Of a stretch of DNA of 64,000 nt, positions 1 to 31,383 are shown piece by piece (within the stretch, counting starts at the first letter, position 1; each line of letters starts with the position of its first letter). Source of the stretch: Raja brachyura (Eukaryota); the NCBI GenBank assembly GCA_963514005.1, contig OY740805.1:20646001-20710000 (forward strand). The letters run 5' to 3'. The translations under genes and the position numbers were made by a program. The notes under the pieces were generated by a model. The model was not told the DNA's origin. It saw only the letters and a list, made by a program, of their open reading frames with translations, and searched no databases.

Positions 1-109
1 CCATTCTGCAACCAGCTGACATTGATGGCCGGTGGATAAAATCCAAACACAGTGCAGTACAGGACTGAATGATCATCAGGGCGGGCAGTGAGAGTGACTT
101 CAGGGGAAA
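1..109 (-). CDS. MHC class I alpha3 (IgC1) exon, 5' part, truncated by window edge
   Basis: Acceptor actgtcttgtag|TT TCC CCT. Translation (V)SPEVTLTARPDDHSVLYCTVFGFYPPAINVSWLQNG. Not in the ORF track. Confidence 0.92.
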
Positions 110-261
110 CTACAAGACAGTAAGTTGGTTATTTTCACCTTCAGTAAAACTTGCACAGTCACCCACCACAAAATATTCTTCAGTCTACTACAACAACCAA
201 GTTACTGTCCACATCTGCCCCATTTTACCTCTTTCGTCACCATCAACCAACCACGTGGTTT

Positions 262-748
262 AAAAGAGGTGTACAAGAATGAACCCAGGAATGAATGGGT
301 TAACATATGATGAGCATTTGATGGCAGAGAACCTGTACTCGCTGGAATTTAGAAGAATAAGGGGGGACCTCATTGAATCATATCAAACAGTGAAAGGGTT
401 GGATAGAGTGGATGTGGAGAGAATGTCTCCACTGGTGGGAGAGTCTACGACTAGAGGTCATTGTCTCAATATTAAAGGACATTCCTTTAGGAAAGAGATG
501 AGGTGGAATTTATTTTGTCAGAGGGTGGTGATTCTGTAGAATTATTTGCCACAGAAGGCTTTGGAATCCGTCAATGGATATTTTTTAAGGCATAGATGGA
601 TTCTTGATTATTATGCATGCTAGGGGTTATGGGGAGAAGGCAGGAGAATGGGGTTAGGAGGGAGAGATAGATCAGCCATGATTGAATGGCGGAGTAGACT
701 TGATGGGCCGAATGTTCTAATGCTGCACCCATCACTTATGACCTTATG
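262..748 (+). mobile_element. CR1-clade LINE 3' fragment
   Basis: ORF2 C-terminus LYSLEFRRIRGDLIESYQ...TRGHCL, followed by the typical 3'UTR (gatcagccatgattgaatggcggag...gggccgaat) and short repeat tail. Confidence 0.85.
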
Positions 749-1062
749 CATCAGTTGGCTTCCTCCATGTGCTCCAGTTTTGTCCCATGTACCAAGGACG
801 TGCCGGTAAGTTAGTTGGACATTGCAAATTATCTGAAGTGGAGCTGAATGAATGGAGAATCCGAGGGAGCTGAGTGCAAGTTGTGAGAGAGAGCTGTTGA
901 GCAGTTAGTCGACATTGCATTGAAAACTAGCATAGACTAAATGGGCCGAATTACCTTTCCCTCTGTCATGATTGGGTCAGAGATAATATTACTCATTGCC
1001 TCAGAGTGAAATATTACTCATCGCCCACCATCAAAAAACAACATCCTTTGTTCTGAACTCAC

Positions 1063-1338
1063 CTTCCCTGGTCAGGTATGTCTTTCCAATTGCATAGTAT
1101 GTATGTCATCGTTCCACACAGTCATTTTCTAACAAGCTCTTGAAATAACGGTTCATTTTTACATTCTTGTCCCATTTCTCTTTGAAGGGCTCAGCTGCTG
1201 GATCATGCACTGTCCACTTTAGTGTGTTCTTATCAAAACTAAATGCATATCTTCCATCATAAGCCAACTTCAATATCCCTCCATTGGGACTGTGATCGTT
1301 CACCTCACAACCAAACTGTCCTTGAATATAGTGATAAT
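1063..1338 (-). CDS. MHC class I alpha2 domain exon (276 bp) with in-frame TGA at 1108-1106
   Basis: Acceptor tttgtctttctttcag|AT TAT CAC, donor GAA G|gtgagt. Translation (D)YHYIQGQFGCEVNDHSPNGGILKLAYDGRYAFSFDKNTLKWTVHDPAAEPFKEKWDKNVKMNRYFKSLLENDCVER*HTYYAIGKTYLTRE. Confidence 0.93.
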
Positions 1339-1474
1339 CTGAAAGAAAGACAAAATCATTATTTGATTAATTGTTATGACACCAGGGTCCAAGTCATTTA
1401 TAAATGTCACAAGTAGCAAGGGTCACAGCACAGACCCTTGCAGAACTCTACTTGTCACTGAACTACACCCTGAA

Positions 1475-1930
1475 TATTTGGCCTTCCGTGCAACTGTAGA
1501 GACCATACTATTGTACGGGTGTGAGGCATGGACTCTCACTCCAGCACTGTCCAAGTCTCTCGATGGTACCTACACCCGAATGCTCAGAATAGTTCAAAAC
1601 CACATCACCAATGCTCAGCTCCATGGGGAGACTCCACCTCTGGCCGAGAAGATCACGTTGAGAAGGATGAGGCTCGCAGGTCACTGCCACCGCCACCCAG
1701 AAATGCCAGCAAACAAAGTTGTGCTGTGGGAACCAACCCATGGAAGACTCGACCCGGGACGACCAATCAAGACGATGCTGAAGATGTTTATGGAAGACCC
1801 ATCTGCAGAGACAAAAGAGCAGCTTGCCAGCTGAATGGAGGACAGAGATGTGTGTTGTGTCTGTCATCGTGCCCGTCAGAAACCAGCATGGCACTAATGT
1901 TATCAACGATTAGTATTATTATTATTATCA
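1475..1930 (+). mobile_element. RTE/RTE-X-type LINE 3' fragment
   Basis: FRATVETILLYGCEAWTLT...YTRMLR...RRMRLAGHCHRH...LWEPTHG, ending in an (ATT)n tail at 1914-1930. Confidence 0.8.
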
Positions 1931-2051
1931 TCCACTACACCGCTCTATCCTGGGGATTTATCCACATTTCTCTTCAAGTGACCCAACATCTCCTTCTTAC
2001 TTAACTTCAAAGTGCCCCTGCATGTTAACATTCTCCACATTGATTCTCCAT

Positions 2052-2846
2052 GTGTAAGAAAGAACTGCAGATGTTAAAATCGAAGGTAGACACTAAATGC
2101 TGAAGTAACTCAGCAGGTCAGGCAGCTTCTCTGGAGAGAAGGAATGGGCGTTATTTTGGGTCGAGACCCTTCTTCAGACTGATGTCAGGGGAGGGACAAA
2201 GATAGAATGTAGGCGGTGACAGTAAGACTGGTGGGAGAATTGCAAAGGGGGAGGGGATGGAGAGATAAATGGAGGGCTATCGAAAGTTATAGAAGTCAAT
2301 GTTCATAACGCTGAAGTGCAGACTGCCCAAGCGAAATACGAGGTGCTGTTCCTCCAATTTGTGCTGGGCCTCACTCTGACAATCGAGGAGGCCCAGGACA
2401 GAAAGGTCAGATTGGGAATGGGAGGGGGAGTTGAAGTGCTGAGCCACTGGGAGATCAGGTAGGATAAGACGGACTGAGCGGAGGTGTTCAGCAAAACGTT
2501 CGCCGAGCCTGCGCTTGGTCTCGCTGATGTAGAGAAGTTGACAACTGAAACAGCAGATACAGTAGATGAGGTTGGGGGAGGAGCAAGTGAACCTCTGCCT
2601 CACCTGGAAAGACTTTGGGTTCATGGATGTAGTCGAGGGGGGAGGTAAAGGAACGGGTGTTGCATTTCCTGCGGATGCAGGAGAAAGTATCGGGGGAGTG
2701 GGTCGTTCGGGTGCGAAGGGACGAGTTGACCAGGGAGTTTCGGAGGGAACGATCTCTGCGGAAAGCAGAAAGTGGTGGAGATGGGAAGATGTGGCCAGTA
2801 GTCGGATCCTGTTGCAGGTGGTGAAAATGTTGGAGGATTACATGCT
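2052..2846 (-). mobile_element. Penelope-like element 3' fragment (GIY-YIG endonuclease plus terminal repeat)
   Basis: ORF 2277-2624 FQVRQRFTCSSPNLIYCICC...LYISETKRRLGERFAEH...VAQHFN; terminal repeat with degenerate hammerhead core at about 2140-2180. Confidence 0.85.
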
Positions 2847-3081
2847 GTACTTACTATTAAAAGTCCTTACTTTTCTCCATGTCTTTCTTGGTGAAACCAA
2901 ATGCAAAGTATTTGTTTCGTACCTCGCCTCCGTCCACAAACACCAAGCACATATTCGCTGCTACATCTTTAAGCAATCCCACCTTCTCCCTCGTGTTTTG
3001 GTGCAATGGCTGCCTCGCCAAAACTCTGCCTGTCCCTTCCTTCTTTGTGTCGGTTTTGTATGTATTGAATGTATGTTCTTC

Positions 3082-3404
3082 ATGGGCCTGTCCGACTGGT
3101 GATTTTTTAGGCAACTGCCGGCAACTGTCATAGTTGTAGCAGGTCAACGAAAAACCAGTAACAACCTACGTCATCCTGGCGACAACCTACGACAGCACCT
3201 ATGTCAGGAGAAGTTAAGCTCTGCTCAATGAAGTCAAACCCACTGTCACTGTAAAATTTTCAACGTTCAAAATTTAGTGGTGAGCAGAAAGACACTACAA
3301 CGTTTTCCGTGACTGAGACTACCCCCGACGACCACCGGCGAGCATGTGGAAATAAACTAGTCACCTGCAGTTGCCTGAAAAATCGCCTAAGTGGGACAGG
3401 CCCA
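3082..3404. mobile_element. PIF/Harbinger-type MITE
   Basis: Terminal inverted repeats tgggcctgtcc(g)act ... agtgggacaggccca, shared with several other copies in the window. Confidence 0.65.
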
Positions 3405-3689
3405 TTAGTGTGGGGGTTGGGAGATGGAGGAAACTTTTTCTAATCTCTTACCTCGATGTAGAAGCGATTTTTTTTTGGTATCGTATCTCCGGCCACACTG
3501 GGGCCTAACATCGAGGTGTTGGCGGCCTTTGCTTTTTTTTTAAGTGTGACTATATCGTAATCTGAATTTCATTGAACCTTAATTGGTACATGTGACAATA
3601 AACTGACCTTGAAACCTTGAAAAAGATGTGGGATTTTCTGTAATCCGACTCACCAAAGCCACTTTGTGGCCTCTATGGGCCCCTTTAGT

Positions 3690-3952
3690 TTTAAGCTTTA
3701 GAGATACAGCGCAGAAACAGGCCCTTCAGCCCACACTAGGGACAATTTACATTTATTCTAAGCCGATTTACCTACATACCTGTACGTCTTTAGAGTGTGG
3801 GAGGAAACCGAAGATCTCGGAGAAAACCCACGTAGTCATGGGGAGAGCGTACAAGCTCCTTACAGGCAGCGCCCGTAGTCAGGATCAAAGGCGGGTCTCC
3901 AACGCTGCAGGTGCTGCAAGGCAGCAACTCTCCAGCTGTGCCACTGTGCCAC
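3690..3952 (-). mobile_element. tRNA-derived V-SINE (HE1-like)
   Basis: tRNA-like head (ggcacagtggcacagc...), V-domain (gtgggttttctccgagatcttcggtttcctcccaca) and ctctaaa(ct) tail. Further copies at about 5530-5780, 5972-6270, 13205-13495, 13965-14240, 20767-21067, 22900-23420, 24225-24445, 32930-33205, 34090-34605, 38955-39240. Confidence 0.8.
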
Positions 3953-4622
3953 CCTCTACTCACCCACTCGAGTTATTCCCTCCTTTCTTTACATTCCTCA
4001 TAGCTCCTGCCTGATTCCATCCTCCTGATCCTTACATGCACTTTCTTTTTCTTTCTTTCTAGTTAAGTTTATCACCTTTTTGGTTATGCAAGCTTCCATT
4101 CCTTTGCCATTCTCATCCTTCCTCACACTGGAACTGGTGATTAAATAACTCATACATAAGTCATGGGAGTCACGGTAACAGGACAATGTACCAGGACATT
4201 GTAACATGTGCATATCCATTCCACCTGTGCTTATAATGCAGAATACTTCCTACTTTCAATGGGATTTTCCGCCAATAATATAAACCACCTGATTGCCACA
4301 TGCATGAAGTCAACACAATTTAAGAAGGACACAAGATAGACACCAGAAGCTGGAGTCACTCAGCATCTCAGGTGAAAAGGAATGTGACATTTTGGTGGCA
4401 GGTGTGAAGGAGGTCTCAACCAGAAACATCATCTATTCCCTTTCTCCAGACTTGCTGCCTGACCCACTGAGTGACTCCAGCTTTTTGTGTTAATCTTCGG
4501 TTTCAATCAGCATCCGCAGTTCCTTCCTAAAATTAAGAAAGACACAAAGTGTTGGGGTAACTCAGCAGGTCAGGCATCATCTCTGGATAATACACAGGCT
4601 ACGATCTTTAGGTCCATCTGCT

Positions 4623-5460
4623 TGCCGTTTCCTAGGAAACTGTTCCTGATTAATCTGTTCAGTGCCACCCCCGGGTATACTCGGGTCATGGCCAATAGTG
4701 AAATAAAAACGTGGCAGCAACAGATTAACAAGGTGTGGACAGAATGTGGGGACTTCAGTACAAGTTTTTGATCCAAGACCAGGTGAGAGAGAGGGGGAAG
4801 ACAGAGGGGGGAGAGAGAAGGGGGAGAGAGAGAAGAGGGGAGACGGGAGCGTGGGGTTCATTTTCCCCACACAAGCCATAGGTGACTGGGTAATCCGAAC
4901 CCAAGCACCAAGTTGAAAGCGGCCGAAGGTGCGCACCCCTCGGTTCAGCCCCCACTCTCCCACGACCACCCTCTGCGGGCTGCGGGTCGGATGGAGCCGA
5001 GATGTGGGACAATGTTCATCCGTTCACAGTGATGTGATGGACGCGGGGGTCTGGACCAATCGCTGACAAGTCCCGCCCCGGGCAACGTCAAGACCGTTAT
5101 TGGACTGATCTGTTGAGCGGTAGTCGGTCCTTTAGCTTGGAGGTGATGCCGACTTTCGGATAGGTGGTGTTTCGACAGAGCAGCCATTCGGTAAGTTTGC
5201 TTTTGGCGATGCAGCTTTTCGGCTCGTTGGCTTTTAGGCGTCCCACCCTTTTGGTTACTTTGTGTTTAGGCGTCCCATCCTTTCGGTTAGTAGGGGTTTC
5301 GTCTTCGTCTTCATTCGGTTTATTGGCGTTTCGGCCTCATTTCTATTTGGTTCTTTGGCTTCGACGTCTTTGCTTCAGCTTCTCGTCCGTCAGTGCCACG
5401 TCCGGGTACCGGACCAAGGGTCTGGTAGCATCTCCACATAGTGAGAGGGAGCTGTGTTAC
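4623..5460 (-). repeat. Unclassified CpG-rich, LTR-like insertion
   Basis: Abruptly CpG-rich; minus strand runs gtaacacag...ggaaacggCA with internal short repeats, CCAAT boxes, a GC box (ggggcggg) and a pyrimidine tract. No clear TSD found. Confidence 0.35.
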
Positions 5461-6756
5461 CCCTTCTACTTTGCTCCCGCTTCCCAAAGAGGAAAATGGA
5501 AGGACGAGGAGCATGACATGGACAATGGAAGCATGGAAACAGGCACTTCGGCCCAGCCAGTCCGCACTGACCAGTGATACCCGCACATTAACATTATCCC
5601 ACACACACTAGGGACAATTTATATTTATATAAAGCCAATTAGCCTGCAAACCTGTATGTCTTTCAAGTGTGGGAGGAAACCAAGATCTCTGAGAAACCTC
5701 ATGCGGTCACGGGGAAAAAGTACAAACTCCATACAGACAGCAGGCTTGTACCTTGGTCTATGGCACTTTGAGGCAGCAATATGTTTACAAAAGTTGGAAG
5801 AATTATGCCTGTGGCAGAAACACCACTGCAGAATCCCAACCTGATCCTATCTTATGGATGGCTCTTCCTATCAGAGAACCTGGAATTAAGATGAAAGGAA
5901 AGAAACCCTGGATCTATGCCCCAGGTGTGAAATAAGCTCATATTTGTTACAAGGACAATTATTTCGTATAGGTTAGAGATAAAGCATGAAAACAGTCCCT
6001 TCAGCCCACTGTACCCACATTGACCAGCAATCTCTGTACATCAGCACAATCCTACATACGAGGTACAATCTACATTTTTTACCGAAGCCAATTAACCTAC
6101 AAACATGTGTGTCTTTGGAGTGTTGGAGGAAACTGGAGCACCCAGAGAAAACCCTCACATTCACAGGGAAAATGTACAAGCTCCGTACTGACAGCACCCG
6201 GAGTCAGGATCGAACCCAGGTCTCTGGAGCTGTGAAGCAGCAGCTCCACCGCTGTGCCACCACGCTACCCTGTTGTCATTAGTATTGTGCGCTGAAATGT
6301 TTCTATCAGTGATTATGGCAACTCTCTCCAAACCTCTATACATTTTCAGTAGACCAAACAGTTCCTCCTTCCACCTTATTAGGCTGAGTTATTGGATGGC
6401 TGAACTCTTTGGGAACCTCCTTAGTGCAAGTTTGATTTAGTTTAGTTTAGAGATACAGTGCAGAAACAGGCCCTTCAGCCCACGGAGTCCGCACCAACCA
6501 GTGATCCCAACACATTAACAATATCCTACACGCACTGGGGACTATTTACATTTATACCGAGCCAATTAACCTACAAACCTGTACGCCTTTGGAGCGTGTG
6601 TGGAAACTGAAGATAGCGGGGAAAGCCCACACAGATCACGGTGAGAATGTGAATGTAAATCTTGAATCAACACTGTAAAATGGTTCTGTGAAGGGAAAAT
6701 GGAGGTCAGGCGAACTGGGTTGAAACTTAAAATGTCTGCTGACCAAAGTTGCTGAC

Positions 6757-6947
6757 TACACAAAAAGCTGGAGAAACTCAGCGGGTGCAGCAGCATCTAA
6801 GGAGCGAAGGAGATAGGCGACGTTTCGGGTTTTCGACCCGAAACGTCGCCTATCTCCTTCGCTACTTAGATGCTGCTGCACCCGCTGAGTTTCTCCAGCT
6901 TTTTGTGTAACCCTCGATTCTCCAGCATCTGCAGTTCCTTCTTTAAC
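6757..6947. repeat. Inverted pair of Penelope terminal repeats (long hairpin)
   Basis: Arms 6757-6830 and 6836-6909 are reverse complements with about 1 mismatch; flanked by direct repeat aaagttgctgacta (6745-6758, 6950-6963). Confidence 0.85.
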
Positions 6948-7298
6948 AGAAAGTTGCTGACTATGTGGCTGCAGGTTTCAGAAAGTTGTGATCCTGAGAA
7001 ATACACATTATCCTGCTGATGCTGATCTGCTGATCGCTACTTTGATATTCCTCGCACCCGTCTGATTGAGGTGGCTGATTTTCAGAAGGCTGAAGAATAT
7101 GCAAACCACTGGCTCCCGAAAGTCTGAGAAATGTCCCTGTCTTAGCGCTAGTGTTGTTCCACTAATTAACATCTCCCACTGTGTACGTGCCTGTTATCAT
7201 GACCATTGTGTACAGGTCTGTTGGTTAATTGGGTAATGTGGGAGGGGCTAAACGGTGGCATTAACATATATAAAGCATTGGGGTTGGACAAGCCCAAG

Positions 7299-7990
7299 TC
7301 TTAAGGGGTTGGACAAGCTAGATGCTGGAAGATTGTTCCCGATGTTGGGGGAGTCCAGAACAAGGGGTCACAGTCTAAGGATAAGGGGGAATTCCTTTAG
7401 GACCGAAATGAGGAAAACATTCTTTACACAGAGAGTGGTGAGTCTCTGGAATTCTCTGCCACAGAAGGTAGTTGAGGCCAGTTCATTGGCTATATTTAAG
7501 AGGGCGTTAGATGTGGCACGTGTGGCTAAAGGGATCATAGAAACATAGAAACATAGAAAATAGGTGCAGGAGTAGGCCATTCGGCCCTTCGAGCCTGCAC
7601 CGCCATTCAATGTGATCATGGCTGATCATCCAACTCAGTATCCCGTACCTGCCTTCTCTCCATACCCCCTGATCCCTTTAGCCACAAGTGCCACATCTAA
7701 TGCCCTCTTAAATATAGCCAATGAACTGGCCTCAACTACCTTCTGTGGCAGAGAATTCCAGAGACTCACCACTCTCTGTGTAAAGAATGTTATCCTCATT
7801 TCGGTCCTAAAGGAATTCCCCCTTATCCTTAGACTGTGACCCCTTGTTCTGGAATCAGGGTGTATGGAGAGAAGGCAGGTACGGGATACTGAGTTGGATG
7901 ATCAGCCATGATCACATTGAATGGCGGTGCAGGCTTGAAGGGCCGAATGGCCTACTCCTGCACCTATTTTCTATGTTTCTATGTTTCTAT
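7299..7990. mobile_element. CR1 LINE 3' end containing an internal inverted copy of itself
   Basis: Forward 7299-7537, reverse 7538-7852, forward 7853-7990 with (ctatgttt)n tail. Confidence 0.85.
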
Positions 7991-8599
7991 TGCAATTAAG
8001 GGCAGAGAGCTTGGCTCTTTGCTAGGTTGTTAACCTGTGTGGAGACTCCTGCTCAATAAACGTACGTTTAAAGTGACCCCGGTGCCTGGTCGATTATTGT
8101 CGAAACGACCGATGTGAGAGAAAAACGTGAATCAACAAGAACGTACAAACTCCGTACAGAGACCACTCATAGCCAGAATCAAACCCACGTCTGTGGCGTT
8201 GCAAGTGCTGTAAGGCAGCAACTCTACCACTGTGCCACCGTGCAGCACAATCTCTTGGCTTTGTTTATAATTATGATCATGTATTAATCTTATATTGTGG
8301 TTTTTGTTTTGCTTTTTGCCTATAAACAAATGTAAAGCTGCACATAAGGTTAGATCCTTTCAAGCTCCGAGCTGCCCCTTTCACCGCAAAATTGCTTCCT
8401 ATTTTTAGAGAAACATGGATATAATAAGGCTCACCCCTCATGGGCATTGAAGGCTTTCTCCAATATATGCAGACCATTAAGCTGTTCATTGCCAAGTTTA
8501 TTTGTACTATTGGCCATGAGCCGAGTACACTCGGGCTTGCATTGCATAAAGATATCCAGTGCTGTGTAACTGCACTACCTTTCCTTCGTATTCTTACTC

Positions 8600-10266
8600 G
8601 AGGATGGTCGCTGGCAAATTGGTCCGTGAATGAGCACGACCCCCTTCCACCTCAGAGAACCACACCGAAAACCAACAACGACCAGTGACGAGTGTCTACA
8701 GCTCAAATGATCACCTGATAAAATGACGTCACGTCTGCATATTTTTCCTCACTAAAAAATGCCTTCCAGGTTGTTTTTTTTTTAAATCATTCTGAACCAT
8801 GCAAGCAAGGAAGGAACTAGTTTGGATGATGTTACTAAAAATACAACTGCTGTTGTTTGCAGTAGCCCTTTTGCTTCAGCAGCCTTTTAAGAAAGGCAGA
8901 AGGGGAAGAGCAATAGTGAAGAGGAAGCACAAGAAGTGGTCTCAATGGGTGAATGGAGATGGTGTGATGGACTGTCCCAGTACACCAGATGACTGGAAGA
9001 GAGTGGCGCTGGGCTTTGACAAAATATGGAACTTTAAGTACACATCAGGGGCAGTGGATGGCAAGCATGCCATTCTTGTCCCTGTCCCTGTACCCCTCAT
9101 TTTCCTTTTCGTACAGGATGGCATTCTGCTGGAACCATTCCTCAAGGTTCCCCTCCTGCTGCCTGGTGAAGGTGTAGGGCATAACCTTCCTCCAGCCCTC
9201 CCTCACCACCAATGGGGCATCTGCAACTGATGCTGTGTCAGACACAGGAGAAAGGGCTGCTTTGCTGCATTCAAATGAGGCAGTGAAGGATGGGGTGATG
9301 GTGGGGACATATATTACCACCCTGGCCTTCCCCCGCAGGGGTCTCTCATGCAGGGCTACCTCCTCCTGCACTATCTCCTCCTGTGGCAGCACCTCCTGCC
9401 ACTCCTCCTCCTGGGTGGGCAACACCTGTATGGCAGGATTTTTTGAGGGTTGTGCCCTCCTCCTGCGATGCTGTCATTTTGGTGCCATCTCTAAAACACA
9501 AGTCTCCTCTGCAAAAAACTCTCCAGCTATGAATGAACATGCCTTGGTGTGAAAGAGGTGACGTTCTGCTGTTTAAATTACCGTTTTTTTCCACTGAACT
9601 TTCTTTCACCCCGGAGCTATTACAAAATTCTAAAAGGACTGGACAAGCTAGATGCAGGAAAAATGTTCCCAATGTTGGGCGAGTCCAGAACCTGGGGCCA
9701 CACTCTTAGAATGCAGGGGAGGTAATTTAAGACTGTGGTGAGAAAAAAACTTTTTCACCTAGAGTGTTGTGAATTTATGGAATTCCCTGCCACAGAGGGC
9801 AGTGGAGGCCAAGTCACTGGATGGATTTAAGAGAGAGTTAGATAGAGCTCTAGCGGCGAGTGGAGTCAAGGGATATGGGGAGAAGGCAGGCACGGGTTAT
9901 TGATCAGCCATGATCACAATGAATGGCGGTGCTGCCTCAAAGGGCCGAATGGCCACCTCCTGCACCTATTTTCTATGTTTCTTTGTTTCTATTATCTTCG
10001 ACTACCTACGACTAGCATCATGGCCAACTACGACCGGCTTCAACTAGACCAACAACTAAAAAAATATAGATTTTTCCCACGGCGACCTATTTTTAGTCGC
10101 GGTCAACTTTTAACATTTTGAAAAATACGCCACGGCCTAGCTGAACCCTGGACTACGCGGAGACCACTCTCGACCATGAAGGAGAGTGACGAAGACCTCC
10201 TACGACCTCGTGGCGACCTTGCCGCGACTATGGGTCGCGGTAGAGGTCACCCAAGTGGGACAGGAG
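8600..10266. mobile_element. Degenerate PIF/Harbinger transposon remnant, interrupted by a CR1 at about 9612-9990
   Basis: Transposase fragment CPSTPDDWKRVALGFDKIWNFKYTSGAVDGKHA (about 8970-9072) resembles the Harbinger/HARBI1 WNFP..IGAIDGKH motif. Right TIR aagtgggacagg at about 10253-10264. Left boundary uncertain. Confidence 0.6.
9612..9990 (+). mobile_element. CR1 LINE 3' fragment
   Basis: ggactggacaagctagatgcagg...gatcagccatgatcacaatgaatggcgg...ctatgtttct tail. Confidence 0.85.
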
Positions 10267-10600
10267 CTTTAGTTGAATCATTCCCTCTGGCATTGATTGA
10301 TGAATCAAAGGAGGTTGGAGGAGGGGGTGTAGAAATTTGTAAGGATTTGCTGGTGAGTTTTCTTAAAAACTGCTCAATCCTTGAAAAGAAGAGTCTGTGA
10401 ACTTTAGCCCAGAGATAAAGAACAGCCTCCTGAGCCCACTTTATCCCTGAGAACAACACGGATCTTCCTCACTTCTATCAATGCCACAAATGCACCTTTA
10501 CGAAGAGAAATTTGCACGGGTGGATTAATCTACTAAATCAGCACATTTTTGGTATGTGGGAGGAAACTGGAGAACAAACATTGTCACAGGGAGAATGCTT

Positions 10601-11295
10601 AAACCCCTGTCCCACTTACTTGTCCTTGACACGCTAATTAAGCGACCTCGTGGTCGCGTTGAAGCGCGACGGTCCAGTCAAGGTCGCGTGCGACTTCATA
10701 CGCCTGCACAGCCGTCTGGAGCGCGTGACGTCATTTGAAGATGGACACCAAATGCTGGAGTAACTCAGCGGGACCGGCAGAATCTCTGGAGAGAAGCAAT
10801 GGGTGATGTTTCAAGTCGAGACTCTTCTTCAGTCTGAAAGAAGGGTCTTGACCCGAAACGTCACCCATTCCTTCTCTCCAGAGATGCTGCCCGTCCCGCC
10901 GAGTTACTCCAGCATTTTGTGTCTATCTTCAATTTTCTTGGCCCCGCTCTGGGAGTAGAAGTGGGGGCGGATCCGGACCGCAACGGCCGTGATCCCCAGG
11001 CCGAGCTCGGCGATCGTTTGCCTGCTTCTGCTGCTGGAGGTGAGACGTTGCATCGCGCCAGAGTCTTGGGCCTGTCCCACTTTGGCCGTCAGTTACGCAA
11101 CAGGCCGGTGGCGCGCGAAGATTTAGTTCGCTACAAAGTTTCGGAGCGCCGCACGATGCCGCGCACAACTACATACCCCTCCGCGCCTCTCAGTGGGACC
11201 GGCCCCGCGCGGCCACTGGATGCCCGTGCGCCTCAACGCAACGACGAGGTCGATTCATTTGCTTGCCAAGGACACGCAAGTGGGACAGGCCCTTT
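10601..11295. mobile_element. Harbinger-type MITE composite containing an inverted Penelope-repeat pair (10742-10930)
   Basis: TIR cccctgtcccactt (about 10604) and aagtgggacaggccc (about 11278-11293), plus an internal second TIR pair near 11068 and 11192; CpG-rich. Confidence 0.6.
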
Positions 11296-11389
11296 ATACT
11301 CCACACAGGCTGCACTGGAGATGATTGAACCCGGATCACTGGAGCTGTGAGGCAGCAGGGCTCTTTGCTACAAAAGCAGTCATAGAGAG

Positions 11390-11840
11390 AGTCACACAGC
11401 ATGGAAACAAGCCCTTTGGCTCAACTTGTTCATGCTAATCTAGATACCCCATCTAAGCTAGTCCTATTTACCCTGCAAAGAATAGATACTGTATCACTCG
11501 AAACCTTTCCCATGCCCTGTCCAAGTGTCTTTTAAATATTGTCATTGTACCTGCCTCAACTCCATTCTCTGGCAGCTCATTCCATATACTTACCACTATC
11601 TGAGCACAAAGATTGCCCCCCAGGTTCCAATCAAATCTTCCCTCTCTCACATTAAACCCATGTCCTCTGGAATTTTATTCCCCTTCTCTGGGTAAAAGGC
11701 TCCGCGCATACACTCTATCAATTCCCCTCATGATTTTAAGCACCCCTATATGATCACCCCTTAGCCTACTGTGCTCCATGGAATAAAGCCCTGGCTTGCC
11801 CAATCTCTCACTCTTGTTCACACCCTTGAGCCCCGGCAAT
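11390..11840 (-). mobile_element. Older CR1-clade LINE 3' fragment
   Basis: Minus-strand LPGLKG...GLYSMEHSRLRGDHIGVLKIMRGIDRV...VVSIWNELP. Confidence 0.75.
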
Positions 11841-19784: not shown

Positions 19785-20170
19785 TCCAAATGTTGCGGGA
19801 GTCCAGAACCAGGGGTCAGTTTAAAACTAAGGGGTAGGCAATTTAGAACTGAGATGAGGAAGAACTTTTCAACCACATAGTTGTGAATCTGTGGTATTCT
19901 CTGCCACCGAAGGCAGTGGAGACTAATTCACTGGATGTTTTCAAGACAAGACTAAGAGTTAGATTTAGCTCTTAGCTATTGGAATCAAATGATATGGTGG
20001 GAAAAGCAGGAACGAGGTACTGATTTTGGATGATCAGCCATGATCATATTGCATAGATACAGACGTTAATAGTTTAGTTTCCAGATACAGAGCAGAAACA
20101 GGCTGGTTCGAAGGGCCGAATGGCCTCTTCCTGCACCTACAGTATTTTCCATGTTTCTTTGTTTCCATGT
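19785..20170 (+). mobile_element. CR1 LINE 3' fragment
   Basis: gagtccagaaccaggggtca...gatcagccatgatcatattg...gggccgaatggcct...tail. Confidence 0.75.
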
Positions 20171-22535
20171 AAATCTCACATTCCCATTAACTTCCCTCGC
20201 CTCTCAATTTTCCCATCACCCACATTTACTCGGGGAAAATTACCTTCCAGTAAAATAACCTGATCCTACCTCACAAATGTTTACAAATGCTTTAAGTGTA
20301 ACCTTGTTAAATGTCTACTGAACTGGTGATTAATCTTTATCTCCCATTTTCCCTCCCTTCTCAAAAATGTACATACTTCAGCAGGCATAACTGCACTCAT
20401 ACACATCCTTACTGTTCTCTCTGATAAATCCACAACAGGTCAAGAGAACAATTGCTCGAGTCCTGAGGATTGTATTGCTGGACTCGACTCTCAATATTAA
20501 TCAGCAAAAGACCCATGTTCTAGGGTATGATTACATTACAAAAACTACCAAATAACCTTTCCGTTTTCAGTAGAAAATAATGTAAAATAATGTCGTGGTG
20601 CTATAAACTTGACACAGAAATATAACATGTTGGAAATGGTCCAACAGCATCTGTGGAGGTAAATAGAGTTGCGACATTTTAGTTGCCAAATTAAATGATG
20701 ACGGTCCAGAACGTGAATTCAGATTTCCTCTCCTTAAGCTTAACATTTTCCATGCTTTCTGGGAATTTAGTTTGATTTAGAGATACAGTGCAGAAACAGG
20801 TCCTTCAGCCCACCGATTCCATGCCGACCAGCGATCCCCGCACACTATCACTATTCTATGCACACACTTGGGACAATTTAGAATTTTACTAACGTAATTG
20901 GTATGTCATTGGCGTGTGGGAGGAAACCGGAGCACCCGGAGGAAACCCGCGCCGGTCATGGGATGGGAAGTTCGTACAAACCGTATGAACCGACAGAAAC
21001 CGTAGTCAGGATTGAACCCATGTCCTTGTGCTGTGAGGCAGCAGCTCTGCCGCTGCACCACCGTGCCGAACCATATTTTTAGCATTTCCTGCCAAATCCT
21101 AAACTGTATCACAAGATGACTTCTCATGCAGGCTTGGTCTTATGTCATTTAAAATATTACTACATACCCCAGCAAATGGTTTATGAATAATAGAAGTGAC
21201 TTACTGTACCAGTTAAAAATCAATGTGAAAAATTTAATTCCCTCCAAATTTCATTCCCTTCTGATGTGCAGCAAGGAAGAATCTCATTGTCCTATCTGGG
21301 ACATGTGACAATAAAACACTCTTGACTGTTGAAGATGTGAGGAAGGGTCTCAACCTGTAACGTCACCTATTTCTTTTTGTCAGAAATGCTGCTTGACCCA
21401 CTGAGTTTCTCCAGCATTTTGTGTCTATCTTCAGTTCCTGCATCAGCAGTTCCTTCTTACAAAGGTGTTCCACCACCACCTGAGTTCCTGCAGCAGTTAT
21501 TTTTATGATACTAGGTTGACATGCAATTGAGACATGCTGTGAGCTTCCCTTCAAAACACAAGGACAATTAAGCCCATATGTTAATTCCTTGCACATTTTA
21601 ACCAATTACGTATTGTAAAGCCTTAACAGTGCAATTTACATTCAGCTTTCAGATAACGCATTTGACCACGAACAGATGTCTATCTCATTAAATTCTACCA
21701 GATAATGCTTCGAAAGTCTGGAAAAGAGCCTCGACCTGAAATGTCACCCATTCCTTCTCTCCAGATATGCTGCATGTCCCGCTGAGTTATTCCAGCTTTC
21801 TGTGTTTATCTTTGAAAGACATTCTCCCTCCCCCACACTTCCTGCAACTTAACATGCTTCTTTTTTCTCCTAGAAAAATAAACAAAGTGCTGGGACAACT
21901 CGACAGGTCAGGCAGTATCACTGGAGAACATGGATATGAGTTGTTGTGGAAAAGGATCCTTCTTCAGACTAATTATAGGAGGTTGGTATGGGCAGTGTGG
22001 ATGGGGAGGAGGCGATGAAGGAATCTGGATGAGAGGAGTTGGACAAAAGTGCTGGAGAAACTCAGCGGATGAGGCAGCATCTATGGAGCGAAGACAATAG
22101 GTAATGTTTCAGGCCGCATCCCTTCTTCAGAGGAGGGGCAGGTAATAGGTGAACATAGGTGAGGAGGCGATAATGTTGGTATCTATCATCTATCATCTGC
22201 CACACTTTGTCCTGCCCCTCCTCGCTTCCAGCTTTATTTACCCTCACAATCAGTCTGAAGAATGGCCCCAACCAGAATCATCACCATCCCACATTCTCCA
22301 GTAATGCTGCCCGTCCCACTGAGCTATTCCAACACTGTGTCTTTTTTTGTTAACTAGCATCTTCAGTTCCTAAATTCTTCTTTCTACTCCTTCCCGGTAC
22401 TGAAGGGCCTCTGGCCTGAAACATTAGCTCTGCTTTTCTTCCCACATATGACCTACTGCATATTGCAAAGTGTTTTCTGTATTTTACTAAAGTCAATTGT
22501 AACATTATTATTCTTGCGAGCATTAGTGAATTAAT

Positions 22536-22866
22536 GGGCCCTGTCCCACGATGCGCGTTCATTCAAGAGCTCTTCCGAGTTTAAAAAAAAATCTAACTCG
22601 TGGGAAGCACGGAGAATGAATGTAGTGGGTATGTCGGAGCTCGGGGACGTCTCTTAGCGGATCGTAACGCTACCGGCAGGTACTCGGGAAGACTTGCTAA
22701 TGGCAGGTAAGCTCGAGAAGACTCATGAAGATTTCTCAACATGTTGAAAAATGTCCACGAGAGCCCCGAGTACCGACGAGTGGCCATTACCGTAAATCTC
22801 TGAGTTCGAATCAGGGCAAACTCGGGAGAACTCTTCGAATGTACTCGTACAGTGGGACAAGGCTTT
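22536..22866. mobile_element. Harbinger-type MITE
   Basis: TIRs gggccctgtcccac / gtgggacaaggct; interior is homologous (opposite orientation) to 39278-39596. Confidence 0.75.
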
Positions 22867-25800
22867 TACTATCCTTTTCAACAATGTTCAACATGGCTAT
22901 GTTTCGAGATACAGCGCGGAAACAGGCCCTTTGGCCCACCAGGTCCGTGCTGACCAGTGATCCCTGCACATTAACGCGCACCTGGGACAATTTTTACATT
23001 TACCAAGCCAATTAACCTACAAACCTGCACGTCTTTGGAATGTGGCAGGAAACCAAAGATCTCAGAGAAAACCCACGCAGGTCAAGGGTAGAACGTATGA
23101 ACTCCATACAGACATCGGGATCGAACCCGGGTCTCCTTCAGGGCCCTTCAGCCCACAGAGTTCATGCTGACCATTGATCTCCCATTCACTCTAGTTATTC
23201 CACATTCTCATCCACTCATTACACTAGGGGCAATTTACATAGGCAAATTAACCTACAAACTTGCATGCCTTTGCGGTGTGGCATAAAACCAGAGCACCCA
23301 GAGGAACCACAGCGGTCACGGCGAAAACGTGCAACTCCACACAGACAGACCCGAGGTCAGGATTGAACCTGGGTCTCTGGCACGATGAGGCAGCAGCTCT
23401 CTACCATTGCACCATTGTGCTGTATTTCACAAAACCCATTAACCAGCTCAACACAGGTTAATGGAAAAAACAAATCAAAGGAGCATTGACGGCCATGAGT
23501 GACTGTGTTTTATGGAAAATATGGTGGGAGGAATAGGATCGATGAATGAAGGAAAGAATGAATGATACTCTATTGTGACATGTACCCAGGGTACCTGGGT
23601 ATAGTGAAATGCTTTGTTTTCCATACAACCTCGGTCTATCCTAGACTGGACTTTGCTGGCTTCACTTTGCACTAAACATTATTCCCTTATCATGTGTCTC
23701 TACACTGCAAATGCATTGATTGTAATCATGTATTGTATTTCTACTGACTGGTTAGCATGCAACAAAAAGCTTTTCACTGTACGTCGGTACACGTGACAAT
23801 AAACCAAACTGAACCTAGGCAGTACAAAAGTGTCGCCATGTGTTGGTACAGACAAAGTTACAAAAGTACCGAACAGTCCTATCCACTGCCTGTTGTCAAC
23901 CATGGCAGCAGACCACATCCCCACCAGTTCCCCCTTCATTCTTGGTGGCACTCCCACCCCCACAGTTCCCCCTTTGTCCTCGTCCCCCCTCAATGGGACA
24001 GCCTCCCTGTGCTGAATGCCCTACTGCTACAATGTTCAAAGTATAACATTAGATTAAGCAATGCTCACTGTTGGACTTTCTACCTGCAAACCTTTAGTAC
24101 TTTGTTGTTCTCTTTGAATAAAAACATTCTTGGGTGTTCTTGTCTGAACAAACTAAAATGTGTTGGTTTTTCCGTGACGTTTGAATTCGGGTATCATGCT
24201 CACCAATCTTTTTTAACAGATGCAGCATGGAAACAGGCCTTTCTGCCCACTGAGTCTGCACTGACCATCAATCACGCATACACTAGTTCTATGTTTTCCC
24301 TGTTTCACATCCTACACACTCAGGGCAATTTACAGAGGCCAATAAACCTACAAACCCACACGTTGTTGGAACGTGGGAGGAAACCGGAGCACCCAGAGGA
24401 AACCCGAGCGGTCACAGGAAGAACATATAAACTCCATACAAACAGAATCCATTGTTGGAAACCTTCTTGTGCCTGTGTAGGAAGGCATTGCAGATGCTGG
24501 TTTACACCAAAGATCGAGACAAAATGCTGGAGTAACGCAGTGGAACAGGCAGCATTCCCGGATAGAAGGATTTAGCATTTTAAAGATCAATACTTTGAGG
24601 GCCCCATTTACAATGACATGTGCATCCCATCATTTGGAATGCCCCTTCACCTACTCTTACTTTCAAAGCATTCTCCACACATATAGTCACAGAGACACAC
24701 AAACAGACCCATCAGCCGCCAGAGTCCACTGACCATGAAGCACTAATTCCATACCATTCCATTCCATCATTGAATGGATCTACAGGAGGTGCTGCCTCAG
24801 AAAGACAGCTAATGTCATCAGAGACCCACACCACCCTGGCCATACTCTCAGGGCCGGCCACCCTGGACCGGGAATTCGCCCTGAAAATCGGGCCCATCCA
24901 TCATGGACCGAGTTCTTGGTCGCTGTGGACCAAGGATGGAGGAACCATCTGGAAGGCTCAACTCGTCGGCCCAGAGTGGAAGGAGTCAGATGGATGGCTG
25001 ATAGACAGACTGGCTGCATGAGGGAATGCACTGCCTCAACAGTGGAGTGGGTGCTGGAGGCCCTGCAGCAGCCTGGGGCTTGGCTGTTCCAGGCGCCGCT
25101 CCAAGAGGCCGGGCGCATGGACCAGTTACTCCCTGCAGCAGTAGAGGACATCACAGCTTCGCTTGGCCAGGCCGACCCTGGAACAACACCAGGACAGTGG
25201 GGCTCATGGTCAGGCCAAGAACCCTCACTTACAACAACTGGGATGTGAAAATGGCACAAATAACTGGCGACACGTACTGCATCTGAGATGCTTATCTAAG
25301 ATATATCTAAGGGCTTATATATATATAGTGATACCTGTATTAAACTGTACACAAAAATAAATTTCACTGTACCTTGGTACATGCCACAAATAAAATACCA
25401 TTGAAACAATGAACTACCTTTGAGGTTAGAGAGCCTGAGAACTGTTAGCTCCAGGTTTAAGAGCAGCTTTTTTCTGACGAGCAACAGGCTTTTAAACACT
25501 GTACAACACTAACCACAACCTTACCTCAACAACTCTGATCTGTGATGGACTTTATTTTGCTTGCAGTAAGGAAGTTTTGTTTTTCCACTGTTATGGTTTG
25601 GTTACCTAGTATAACTATTATTAATTTATTGTGTCATTGATTATCTTATATTCAATATGTGCATGAGAATTTCATTGTCCAATTGCCAGTACAGATGACA
25701 ATTAAACTCTTGCTCTCGACCAACCCATTCTTATTCTCTGCAAATTCCCATCATATCTCTCCAGATTATATTACTTACCTACAAATGAAAGTCAATTTAC

Positions 25801-26280
25801 ACTGTGGAAACAAGGAACTACAAATGTTGGTTCACAAAGAAAGATGCGTAAAGTGCTGGATCATCTTAGTGGGTAAGGCAGCATCCCTGGAGAACATGGA
25901 TATGTGATGATGGATAGATGTTTCGGGTCAAGACCCCTTCTTCACCCAGTGGAAGGGTGTTGATCCTAAACGTCATCTATCCATGTTTGCTGGAGATGCT
26001 GCCTGACCAGCTGAGTTACTCCGGCACTTAGAGATTGACACAAAATGCTGGAGTAACTCAGTGGGACACGCAGCATCTCTGGAGAGGTCTCGAGCTGAAA
26101 TGCCACCTATTCCTTTTCTCCAGCGTTGCTGTCTGACCCGCTGAGTTACTCCAGCTGTTTGAGTCTATCTTCGGTTTAAACCAGCATCTGCAGTTCCTCC
26201 CTACGCAGCTCTTCCCTTGGCATTGTTCCTCAGCATTGCAAACCATCTTCCAGTTTTAATCAAGAGTTGAGTGCTTAATT

Positions 26281-26283
<3 letters not shown>

Positions 26284-26315
<32 letters not shown>
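26284..26315. repeat. (TA)n microsatellite
   Basis: Direct inspection. Confidence 0.95.
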
Positions 26316-26318
<3 letters not shown>

Positions 26319-28129
26319 CCCCCTGCACCAAATTATATATACACACATACACACATATACACAACGAGAAACGGAACAATGAGATTTTTACTCAGAGCAT
26401 GATAACAGGTCTGTACAGACAATAAACATAGAAAATACATAATACAACTAACAAAAAAACAAAATCAATAAATTACCAACCTCAATACTAGGGCAAACAA
26501 AATCTGAAAGTCCTTAGTGCAACCAAAGACAGTCCATAGAATTTCACAGTTGAGGTTAGCATTGTGTAGTGTTCATTTGCATGATAGTTGTTGGGAAGAA
26601 GCTATTCTTCAACCTGGTGGCTATGGTTTTCAAGCACATGTACTTTCTTCCCCATGGTAGGAGGTAATGAGAGTGTGGCCAGGGTGATGATGTTGGCTAC
26701 CTTTTTGAGACAGCGTCTCGTGTGGATCCCTTCAATGGTGGTGAGGTCAGTACCCATGATGAACCGGGCAGTATAATATCCTGATTATTCACAAATGTAA
26801 GTACTTCATCTGAAGAGTAGGCCTAAGTCGTAGAATTGCTCTCTATATATCCCTTCCTCTATTTTTCCTTTAAGATGCACCTTAAATGTTTATTTTCTAA
26901 TTGTCATGTAATGTCATTATACTGCTCGAAGTAAAATGTTACAGAATAATATTCTTACTTGAAGCATTCTCAGTGAAGCATTTTCCTACATTGGAACTGC
27001 TTTAAATATGTTATTCTTTATATCTATGTCTGTTTCCCCTTTCACCAACTTAGATTATTACCATCAAAGGAGAATGTCATTTTTTGTGTGCTGCTGGAAT
27101 GTGATCATTTGATGTGTGCTGGAATGTGATCATTAAAATCTTCCCGTATATTGAACCCTGAACTACAGTACACTCAACTATGAATAATGAACAAAATAAA
27201 GTCAAAGTGTTGGAGTAACTCAGCAGATCAGGCAGCATCGCTGGTGACAGTGGATAGGTGATGTGTCAAGTCAGACGCTGTAGACCTATGGACAGTCTTT
27301 GGTTAGACTAAGCATTCAAGGTGTTTTTTGCACGCATTGGGACTATCAATTTGCTGAATTTTTAGTATGTTATTTATTTGTATTGTCTTACAGTTCTGCT
27401 CAGCTGCTACGAGAATGTCATTGATTTGTAGTCAGCACATATGACAATTGAACATTCTATACTCTCTTTCCTTCTGGACTCTCTTGTGGAGTGGGAACAA
27501 ACCTAACATAAGTAAAGTGGTGCCATTCATCCTTTGTCCCCAATCTGATATTCTATAAGATCATAATGATCCTCTAGCAGACCACCATTTTTCCAAACTA
27601 ACCTTTTCCTTTTGTATCCAAGCATCTTCCAACCCTGCCTCAAGCATCTGATTGACTGAATGCCCACAGCCTTCATGGACAGAGAATTTGAAAGACTAAT
27701 TCCCCTCTGGGTGAAATAATTTAATCTCTTTACTACACTGAATTCAATGATTCAATAGTATTTTATTATCACAGGCACCTAGGTACAGTGAAAAGTTTTG
27801 TTCCGTATACAACTCAGTAAAATCATATAGCAGATCGAACCTAGGCAATACACAAGTGTCACCATGTTTTGGTGCCATAAGAATGTCTGAAGCCTTATTT
27901 GTAAACTGTGAATTTTGGTTTCAGACACACCAGTCTGGGGAGAAATAAAAAGACCCTCCCTCATGTTCTGAACTTTGACTCGCTTCATAAAGTGCAGAAT
28001 TTGGATGTTCAGCCCTTCGAGTTTACTCCACAATTTAATCATGGCTGACCTATCGTTCCCTCTCAACGCCAATCTCCTGTCATCTCTCTGTGACCTTTGA
28101 CACTCTTAGAAATCTGGCGACATGCTGGC

Positions 28130-29935
28130 ATTTTATGGGTTTGTATTCCAGTCCTCGTGATATAAATCACCTTCCTGACTACCGGTTCAATTTGCAAATT
28201 AACCTTTTGGGAGTCCTGCACCAACACTCGCAAGTCACTTTGCTCCTCCGATTTCTGGATTCTATCTCCATTTGTAAAATAGTCTATGCCTTTATTCTTA
28301 TTACCAAAATGCATGTCTCCACACTTTGCTATACTGAATTTCATCTGCCTCTTCTGTGCCCACTCTCCCAACCTGTACACGTTCACATTACTGGAGTAGA
28401 ATTAGGCCATTCGGCCCATCGAGTCTACTCCACCATTTGATTATGGCTGATCTGTGCCTCCTAATCCCATTTTCCTGCCTTCTCCCAATGATAACCCGTT
28501 CTAATCAACAATGTGTCGATCTCTGCCTTAAAAATATCCACCACCGTGGCTTCCACTGCCCTCTGTGGCAATGAGTTCCACAGATTAACTACCCTCTGAC
28601 TAAAGAAATTCCTCCTCACCTCCTTTCTAAAAAGGCACCCTTTAATTCTGAGGCTATGACCTCTGGTCCTAGACTCACCCACCAGTGGAAACATCCTTTC
28701 CACATCCACTCTATCTTTGCTTTTCATTATTCTGTAAATTTCAATGAGGTTCCCCCCTGAACATTCTCAACTCCAGCGAGTAGAGGCCCAGTGCTGTCAA
28801 ACGCTCATCATATGCTAACCCACTCATTCATGGAATCATTCTTGTTAACCTCCTCTGAACCAGAGCCAGCACATCCTTCCTCGGATCGGGGGCCCAAATT
28901 TGCACACTGTACTCCAAATGTGGCCTTTTGGAGCCTCAGAATGACATATCTGTTTTTGTATTCCAGTCCTCTTGATATAAATCACCTTCCTGACTACCGA
29001 TTCAATTTGGAAATTAACTTTTTGGGAATCCTGCACCAACACACCCATGTCACTGTGCACCTCAGATTTCTGGATTCTCCCTCCATTTGTAAAATAATCT
29101 ACGCCTTTATTTGTATTACCAAAATGCATGACTCCACACTTTGCTATACTGAATTTCATCTGCCACCTCTCTGCCCACTCTGCTAACCTGAACAAGTCCT
29201 TCTGCAAAGTCCTTGCTTTCTCTACACTGCCTGTCCCTCCACCTATTTTAGCATCAACTGCAAACCTGGCCACAGAACCTTACCACGTAAACACGATGAC
29301 CGCACGTTTGGAGCTAAGAGTTGTCACTCAGTCAATAGCAAAATCCACAGTGTGTGGAACATTCCAGAAGATTAGTCAAGCATGATTTCCATTTCATAAA
29401 TCCATGTTGACTTGGACTAATCATTTTACTGCTATCCAAATGCCCCATTATTACCTCTTTAATAATTGACTCCTGCATTCCTCCCACCACCGAAGTCAGA
29501 CAAACTGGTCTGTAATTACCCGTTTTCTCTCTCGCTCCTTTCTTGAAAAGTGGGATAACATTAGCTATCCTCCAAACCACAGGAGCTGATCCTGAATCTT
29601 TTGAACATTGGAAAATGATCACCAACGGGTCCACTATTTCCAGAGCCTCCTCCCTGAGGACCCTGGGATGCAGACCATCAGGCCCAGGGGATTTATCATT
29701 CTTCATTCCCATTAGCCTACCCAATACTATTTCTCGCCTAATGAACATGTATTTCAATTCCTCTACCCCCTTAGGCCCTCTGTCCCCCAGTATATCTGGG
29801 AGATTGTTTGTGTCTTCTTTAGTGAAGACAGATCCAAAGTACCTATTCAACTCCTCTGCCATTTCCTTGTTGCCCATACTAATTTCACCTGTGCCAACCT
29901 TCAAGGGACCCACATTTGACTTTGCTAATCTTTAG
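28130..29935 (-). mobile_element. Cluster of CR1 LINE ORF2 and 3' fragments
   Basis: KSPGPDGLHPRVLRE...NYRPVCLTSVV...QHGFMKWKSCLTNLLE (29332-29913); KFAxD-like RFAVDAKIGG...WQMKFSIAKC (28845-29273), partly repeated at 28130-28375; 3' end at about 28385-28800. Confidence 0.9.
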
Positions 29936-30031
29936 TGACTGTGCTAATCTTTTCCTGATTTTGCATTGTACTCGTGCCTCTCTCTCTTCCGACATTTGGC
30001 CATAAACTTGAACCTGTCAAACAAAGCACTT

Positions 30032-30950
30032 TGTGTAGGAAAGAACTGCAGATGCTAGTTTAACTCGAAGGTAGACACAAAATGCTGGAGTACTCAGCAG
30101 GCAGGCAGCATCTCTGGAGAGAAGGAATGGGCGACCTATCGGCTCGAGGCCCTTCTTCAGACTGATGTCAGGGGAGTGGATGGGACAAACATAGAATGTA
30201 GGCAACGACAGTAAGACTGGTGGGAGAACTGGGAAAGGGGAGGGGATAGAGAGGGAAAGCAAGGGCTATTTAAAGCTGGAGAAGTCAATGTTCATGCCGC
30301 TTGATTGTAAACTACCCAAGCAAAATATGAGGTGCTATTCCTCCAATTTGCACTGGGCCTCACTCTGACAATGGAGGAGGCCCAGGACAGAAAGGTCAGA
30401 TTGGAATGGGAGGATAGATTGAAGTGCTGAGCAACCAGGAGATCAGGTAGGTTAAGATGGACTGAGCAGAGTAGTTCAGCAAAATGATTGCCGAGCCTGC
30501 GCTTGGCCTCGCTGATGGAGAGAGGTTGCCACCTGCAACTGCGGAAACAGTAGATGAGGTTGGAGGAGGTGCAAGTGAACCTCTGCCTCACCTGGAAAGA
30601 CTGTTTGGGTCCTTGGATGGAGTCGAGGGGGGAGGGAAAGGGACATGTGTTGCATTTCCTGCCGGTGCTGGGGAAAGTACCTGGGGAGGGGGCAGTTTGG
30701 GTGGAAAAGGACGAGTTGACCAGGGAATTTCAGGGGAACGGTCTCCACGGAAAGCAGAAAGGGGTGGAGACGGGAAGATGTGGCCAGTACTGGGATCCTG
30801 TTGGAGGTGGCAAAAATGATGGAGGATTATATGCTGTGTGCAACGGCTAATGGGGTGGAAGGTGAGGACAAGGGGGACTTTGTCATTGATACGAATGGGG
30901 GGAATGGAGGGGGGGGGGAAGCAACAGCGGAGCATCGAGGAAACCCTGGT
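30032..30950 (-). mobile_element. Penelope-like element 3' fragment
   Basis: KVPLVLTFHP...QHIILHHF...AFRGDRS linker, GIY-YIG RQRFTCTSSNLIYC, then terminal repeat at 30032-30170. Confidence 0.85.
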
Positions 30951-31331
30951 GAGTGGCCTCGCCCTTGTTTGTTTTACACGAGTTAAAATCAGTTTAAACC
31001 AAGATCTGCAGTTCTTTCTTCCTCAAAGGAAACGGGGCATGGTGCAAATCAAAGCAGAAATTTCAGTCTGGATTTTACTGAAACAGGAGAGATTAAACCT
31101 TTTCAACTTTTTTAAAAAAAATTTCAAAATAGACTTTATTCAAGTAATAAATATTTACAATACATCAACCGTGCGAAAAATCCATCCGACATTTTCGGAG
31201 GCAACCTTTTTAACGTCTGCATGTTCCTCAGACTAACGCGCGTTTTAAAATTTAGTCGCCTCCTGTCCAGATTGAGATTAAGTCAAGACGCTTTTAGCCA
31301 GTAGAGAATAAAATTAGAATCATTAACTTAC

Positions 31332-31383
31332 CGGCTAGAGCCCCTAGTACACGAATAAAACTCAGCAAGACGAACAGAATCAT
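31332..31383 (-). CDS. MHC class I leader (signal peptide) exon, MILFVLLSFIRVLGALA+G
   Basis: ATG at 31383, 17 mostly hydrophobic codons ending in A-L-A, then G|GTAAGT phase-1 donor matching the phase-1 alpha1 acceptor. An in-frame upstream ATG at 31404 is an alternative start. Linkage over 18.5 kb is inferred. Confidence 0.75.

Follow-up and report, generated by a model that had tools for sequence, protein, structure and literature searches.

Gene structure at the locus

Positions 20,646,001 to 20,710,000 of contig OY740805.1 (forward strand; Raja brachyura, assembly GCA_963514005.1) were analyzed as one window of 64,000 nucleotides. The 5′ part of a major histocompatibility complex (MHC) class I gene of the nonclassical UGA lineage lies on the minus strand at the start of the window, and its alpha2 exon contains an in-frame TGA that has probably left this copy non-functional. 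The features of the gene are listed below; repeat content is the share of each intron that matches elsewhere in the window.

1..109, minus strand: exon 4, first 109 nt of the alpha3 immunoglobulin (Ig) C1 domain, cut by the window start
110..1062, minus strand: intron 3, 953 bp, at least 50% repeat; high-copy repeat at about 250-770
1063..1338, minus strand: exon 3, alpha2, 276 nt, phase 1-1; both cysteines retained; holds the stop
1106..1108, minus strand: premature TGA in the spliced frame; TGG in four of four aligned runs; W in most relatives
1339..12594, minus strand: intron 2, 11,256 bp, at least 36% repeat
12595..12855, minus strand: exon 2, alpha1, 261 nt, open frame
12856..31331, minus strand: intron 1, 18,476 bp, GT..AG, at least 44% repeat
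31332..31404, minus strand: exon 1, leader, 52 nt from the ATG at 31383 (ATG...G/GTAAGT); alternative in-frame ATG at 31404
31458..31495, minus strand: putative X2/Y-box-like promoter elements, TGACG at 31488 and CTGATTG-C at 31465, 18 nt apart

A sequence-only reading of this DNA had proposed four exons with canonical phase-1 splice sites, and this layout was confirmed: all AG/GT ends are present at 31383-31332, 12855-12595, 1338-1063 and 109-1, and phase 1 is used throughout. The leader, alpha1, alpha2 (with its disulfide) and Ig C1-type alpha3 thus occupy separate phase-1 exons, which is the layout of an MHC class I heavy chain. The remainder of alpha3, the transmembrane (TM) segment and the tail lie outside the window. 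That reading had also assembled the exons into a continuous leader-alpha1-alpha2-alpha3 frame; the exon order stands, but the frame is closed by a TGA at codon 182, which had been missed.

The individual exons were identified as follows. Exon 1 was found by tblastn with residues 1-34 of an Amblyraja UGA-type protein (E 2e-7), and 12-13 of its 17 leader residues are identical to those of skate relatives in the alignment; no leader exon closer to alpha1 was found by tblastn. The in-frame ATG at 31404, 21 nt upstream of that at 31383, aligns with the starts of the Amblyraja and Leucoraja models, so the leader may be seven residues longer. The alpha1 exon had no Pfam match, and a protein search with it gave eight elasmobranch class I matches of 55-84% identity (eight of 12 candidates), with skate class I proteins at 77-84%. 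In Pfam, alpha2 matched MHC_I (E 1.9e-13) and the alpha3 piece matched C1-set (E 3.3e-6); 31-34 of the 35 alpha3 residues are identical to those of skate relatives. There is no frameshift in the 698 bases of coding sequence. When the window was searched by tblastn with relatives, the four exons were matched, and the search revealed no further set of class I exons. No MHC marker genes were recognized among the long open reading frames (ORFs) of the window, and Rfam and tRNA scans gave no matches.

A CCAAT, a TGACG and the Y-box-like CTGATTG-C precede the first ATG by about 60-110 nt (31512-31458, minus strand). Relative to the SXY consensus, the final base of CTGATTG-C departs from the Y-box.

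The exon borders were also compared with contigs from sequencing runs, of which X1, X3, X5 and X20 (four of 22 listed, none of the 22 being on record as RNA) were aligned to positions 1-1420. The alignment of an X20 contig (possibly from RNA, and bearing another organism code) spans precisely 1063-1338, and the contig has 65 additional letters. The X20 bin depths fit a second contig that covers 1-109 plus 30 nt of alpha2, and unique parts of the intron are uncovered. These data support the borders 1338, 1063 and 109 in a relative whose codon 182 is intact, the 1063/109 joint being derived from depth arithmetic and absent among the 15 joints listed (there are 206 more). For junctions 31332/12855 and 12595/1338 the evidence is homology: the sequences of relatives, three Logan proteins among them, continue across both without a break. 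In-frame cryptic donors upstream of the stop (1308 and 1119) are weak matches.

Assignment to the UGA lineage

The top match in the PDB for both groove domains, as determined with phmmer, was 9CH4, titled “Crystal structure of shark nonclassical MHC CLASS I, UGA” (released 2026-03-18). For alpha1 it scored 117 bits vs. 39.7 for the classical shark structure 6LUP; for alpha2, the scores were 119 bits vs. 61 for 6LUP and 45 for MR1. In the available part of Supplemental File 10 of PMC10751288, the rows labeled Gcirratum_UGA appear by eye to be identical to the 9CH4 chain, and the alpha1 row labeled Lerinacea_UGA is one residue off the Leucoraja proteins P0005, P0026 and P0027. Over alpha1-alpha2, the window gene is identical to Rhinoraja P0004 at 150 of 178 positions (84%), to Leucoraja P0027 at 144 (81%), to the sawfish protein at 71% and to zebra shark P0008, the counterpart of 9CH4, at 109 (61%). 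Identity to five proteins outside this group was 53-69/178 (Triakis class Ia 32%, UDA-like 32%, UCA-like 30%, sister paralogue 39%). When P0004 was searched against 1.84 billion representatives, three matches of 64-87% were obtained, followed by values of at most 39% among the 150 matches listed.

A quick maximum-likelihood (ML) tree was calculated in IQ-TREE from 67 rows (the window, 21 UGA-type proteins and 45 of 74 eligible outgroups), with support given by the Shimodaira-Hasegawa-like approximate likelihood-ratio test (SH-aLRT) and no bootstrap. The window gene was placed inside the skate group (SH-aLRT 100); the enclosing batoid group and the entire UGA-type group had support of 99 each. 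The identities themselves point to a skate as the most likely host. The outgroups contained a named Triakis class Ia row and, as judged by eye, UDA-like and UCA-like rows; the zebra shark counterpart stood in for 9CH4, and UBA, UEA, UFA, CD1 and MR1 were not knowingly in the tree. A fold search with the predicted structure of P0004 gave Z scores of 14.7 for 9CH4 vs. 14.2, a tie, its use being confined to the 9CH4 title; the model itself, made from seven sequences, was too poor for pocket analysis (predicted local distance difference test 54.9, predicted template-modeling score 0.33).

On this sequence evidence, the window gene belongs to the named UGA lineage, apart from UAA, UCA and UDA. The sequence-only reading was thus right in calling a nonclassical class I gene of a cartilaginous fish, and wrong in its suggestion of a possibly unassigned lineage; by its own test, tight clustering with UGA removes the novelty of the lineage and keeps the gene call. 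That this is a divergent class Ib lineage without a name is very improbable: the 30-33% identity to classical, UDA-like and UCA-like proteins, the alpha1 exon without a Pfam match and the generic RefSeq names of the relatives favor it, but 81% identity to Leucoraja proteins that match labeled UGA rows, 61% identity to the 9CH4 counterpart from zebra shark and nesting in their clade oppose it, and the labeled sequences and the title of 9CH4 refute it.

The gene and the UGA proteins of nurse shark (9CH4) and little skate (available part of PMC10751288) fall in the same clade and have the leader-alpha1-alpha2-alpha3 order in common. The window shares with them TLNHG, LDGCEI, GFHGIIKG, a phenylalanine at classical T143 and a leucine at classical Y159. 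The groove positions used here are in HLA numbering, which we take from the HLA-A2 row. With classical UAA (Triakis AAB97342.1; nurse shark 6LUP), the gene has in common the domain order, the exon phases, the alpha2 disulfide cysteines and the equivalents of Y7, Y59, R84, K146, W147 and Y171. Residues that anchor the peptide termini in the Triakis row are replaced (T143 by F, Y159 by L and W167 by R), and the 32% alpha1-alpha2 identity and separate clade show that the gene is not classical class Ia. The window is very unlike the UFA and CD1 rows in the available part of the PMC10751288 supplement, a comparison made by eye with no score computed; that supplement yielded no labeled UEA sequence.

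According to a personal communication cited in a review (PMC12562908), UGA binds lipids much like CD1d; the same text describes UFA and UGA as CD1-like lipid binders and UGA as single- or low-copy. Such binding would be a functional likeness of the intact UGA lineage to UFA, CD1 and MR1, class Ib molecules that present lipids or metabolites. All elasmobranch class Ib genes are placed in the MHC in PMC10751288. UGA is thinly documented, though it is named, has a crystal structure and has orthologues annotated in skates, rays and sharks.

The premature stop codon and lost residues

The TGA is located at 1108-1106, codon 182 of the spliced frame, in the context C-V-E-R-*-H and 43 nt before the alpha2 donor. 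An open frame through alpha3, TM segment and tail thus fails at codon 182 (the 3′ exons are beyond the window). Runs X1, X3, X5 and X20 all have TGG at this codon at full depth. The closest of them, X1, has a 635-nt contig that is 99.4% identical over 692-1326, with differences at 907, 1106, 1197 and 1281, and an alpha3 contig with two differences (89 and 99). The four runs share one base that is not the window's at each of five exon sites; four of these differences change a residue (G/V, A/V, stop/W, T/A) and one is silent. The proportion of residue-changing sites (4/5) equals the 80% expected without selection, and the X1 exon differences are compatible with relaxed selection.

A set of 33 aligned relatives was used for residue counts. 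Position 182 is W in 27/33, C in 5/33 and a gap in 1/33. Besides the stop, the window alone has lost the alpha1 N-glycosylation site (N101S; Asn in 33/33) and carries W65C (Trp in 32/33), Y52H (Y or F in 33/33) and L181R; Y52H, W65C and L181R occur in none of the relatives. The terminal branch of the window in the quick ML tree is 0.11, compared with 0.008-0.021 for the Rhinoraja copies.

Two side observations concern this exon. At window positions 1110-1112, two alpha2 types are seen among the runs: E-R-W (X1 and X3, as in the window) and D-L-W (X5 and X20). Type and organism code do not go together, since X1 and X5 share the code but not the type, and X1 and X3 the type but not the code; these may be paralogues, a shared polymorphism or a matter of labeling. 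Recoding of the TGA as selenocysteine was considered and rejected, as the relatives carry Trp or Cys there; the 3′ untranslated region is outside the window.

Interpretation and alternative explanations

The reading adopted, to which we assign a probability of roughly three in four, is that the 5′ portion of a UGA-lineage class Ib gene from a skate lies in the window, interrupted by a TGA in alpha2, and that this copy is likely non-functional, either a young pseudogene or a null allele. Intact orthologues would be spliced as leader-alpha1-alpha2-alpha3-TM-tail and would pair with beta-2-microglobulin. A G-to-A change would have made Trp182 a stop. Since the stop lies well upstream of later exon junctions (alpha3 and subsequent exons), the mRNA would be a target of nonsense-mediated decay. 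Any product would comprise about 164 residues of alpha1-alpha2 and would end four residues past the second alpha2 cysteine; as it would be missing the end of the helix, alpha3, the membrane anchor and the alpha1 glycan, no ligand presentation at the surface would be expected.

Several points weigh against this reading. Trp182 is not invariant, being C in 5/33 rows and L in 9CH4. The TGA occurs in no aligned run and is known from the window alone; because run contigs drop variants, a heterozygous allele is compatible with the TGG in the runs but gains no support from it. With just five exon changes, relaxed and positive selection cannot be told apart, and the 33 rows of relatives are not independent of one another. 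The alpha1 changes may be ordinary species differences, the closest runs having been aligned over 1-1420 only. I109, N142, T143 and E196 differ from the RefSeq skates, yet they are common to the intact X20 contig and so do not reflect decay. Lastly, no primary UGA paper was found in the literature searched, which excluded most subscription journals, and lipid binding is second-hand.

One alternative is that the stop is real and a product nevertheless persists, by skipping of alpha2 to give an alpha1-alpha3-TM chain, by secretion of an alpha1-alpha2 fragment or by read-through to full-length protein; we regard this as unlikely. The alpha2 exon is symmetric (276 nt, phase 1-1), and the frame stays open when it is skipped. 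An alpha2-skipped isoform would be comparable to HLA-G2, and a stop followed by C (UGA-C) is a leaky context for read-through. Leucoraja model P0006, which is without alpha3, indicates that exon-skipped models are annotated in the UGA lineage. However, no transcript of the TGA allele was seen and the X20 contigs contain alpha2; an alpha1-alpha3 chain has no complete groove; and W65C and the glycan loss are likely harmful to alpha1 as well.

It is quite unlikely that the gene is intact and that the TGA was wrongly introduced by base calling or by the assembly consensus. Such an error would fit the full-depth TGG in all four runs, including the nearly identical X1, and the splice sites and both exon frames, which are otherwise intact. 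Against it, local accuracy looks high: across 4.39 kb, tandem units 2 and 3 (44-53 kb; described below) are separated by a single substitution and by differences in homopolymer and microsatellite length, and the coding bases show no frameshift. Five more substitutions relative to the X1 main contigs (89, 99, 907, 1197 and 1281) point to another haplotype or species rather than to a noisy X1, and conserved alpha1 residues have been lost independently of the stop.

If a non-functional copy is accepted, a stop-carrying UGA gene in one skate and an apparent expansion in another bear on the dispensability and copy-number variation of a proposed CD1 analogue. A null allele segregating in a species, if confirmed, would be a natural test of the role of UGA in lipid-reactive T cells.

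Copy number and relatives of UGA

Ten UGA-type proteins of Rhinoraja longicauda (P0004 and P0012-P0020) form one cluster; nine are distinct over 215 residues, and they are 0-10 differences apart. By protein count, and not from mapped loci, UGA appears to have expanded recently in Rhinoraja, although PMC12562908 gives the lineage one or few copies. Sawfish and sawshark have three UGA-type proteins each. The main alpha2 contigs number essentially one in X1 and up to three in X3. Together, these sequences suggest birth-and-death of UGA in this lineage. A stronger version, in which birth-and-death is rapid in skates, one genome having some 9-10 near-identical copies and the present one a natural knock-out of possibly its only copy, is put forward tentatively and is rather doubtful; if true, skates would harbor naturally occurring gains and losses in an ancient system for presenting lipids.

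Two observations were made on the relatives themselves. The Leucoraja protein P0071 (XP_055486430.1), a divergent class I sequence 39% identical to the window gene, branches as sister to the UGA group as a whole (SH-aLRT 97). Its accession adjoins a UGA model, and by eye it matches none of the labeled rows in the available part of the PMC10751288 supplement; this protein, rather than the window gene, may represent an unassigned lineage. Furthermore, the RefSeq models P0005, P0006 and P0021-P0025 (Leucoraja LOC129716032) fuse UGA to a downstream GPR139-like seven-transmembrane gene, reflecting either read-through transcripts or an annotation artefact.

Introns and gene span

The intron lengths given by the sequence-only reading (18.5 and 11.3 kb) correspond to the measured 18,476 and 11,256 bp. 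Its proposal that these introns were inflated by transposable elements holds insofar as they are repeat-rich; they are, however, no richer than the surrounding DNA, the upstream flank (31405-39800) having a repeat share of 43% (the exons have 0%). In run X1, the summed contig depth over the intron 3 repeat is up to 4.7 million, vs. about 60 in unique parts. A weak reverse transcriptase (RT) fragment is present in intron 1 at 29335-29931 (Pfam RVT_1 E 0.005, under the cut-off); no transposon-type Pfam match was found in the 11 intronic ORF fragments scanned. The long introns would be explained by ordinary retroelement build-up, the same as in the flanking DNA.

The accompanying claim that classical class I genes are usually compact, taken as a premise for class I genes in general, does not hold for sharks. 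In the available part of the PMC10751288 supplement, spans of at least 31.4 kb are found in eight of 18 white shark MHC-Ib models and in eight of the first 12 of catshark, i.e. 16 of the 30 surveyed (of 45 MHC-Ib places listed), some of which are possibly read-through models; the partial white shark UAA spans 33.4 kb. By our own arithmetic, the six sawfish rows listed in that part span 3.7-21.8 kb, with none over 31 kb. The window gene may therefore be long for a batoid.

Other elements in the window

Three head-to-tail copies of a 4.38-4.39-kb unit, 99.6-99.8% identical, occupy 39852-53012. Each contains a truncated long interspersed nuclear element (LINE) RT (RVT_1 E 2e-17; weak zf-RVT) that is split over two frames at an identical place, and each ends in (TA)n. 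Either the unit was triplicated in tandem very recently or the assembly over-expanded the array.

On the plus strand, 53400-58230 features, in overlapping frames, a gag-like ORF with no Pfam match, an RT (E 1e-19), a Dam-like methyltransferase (E 1.6e-4) and an integrase SAM-like domain (E 2e-6). The domain order suggests a DIRS-like retroelement. A 407-codon open frame at 61287-62510 (minus strand) resembles an endogenous retrovirus envelope, with matches under the cut-off to TLV_coat (E 1.3e-4) and to Ebola-like HR1-HR2 (E 0.006).

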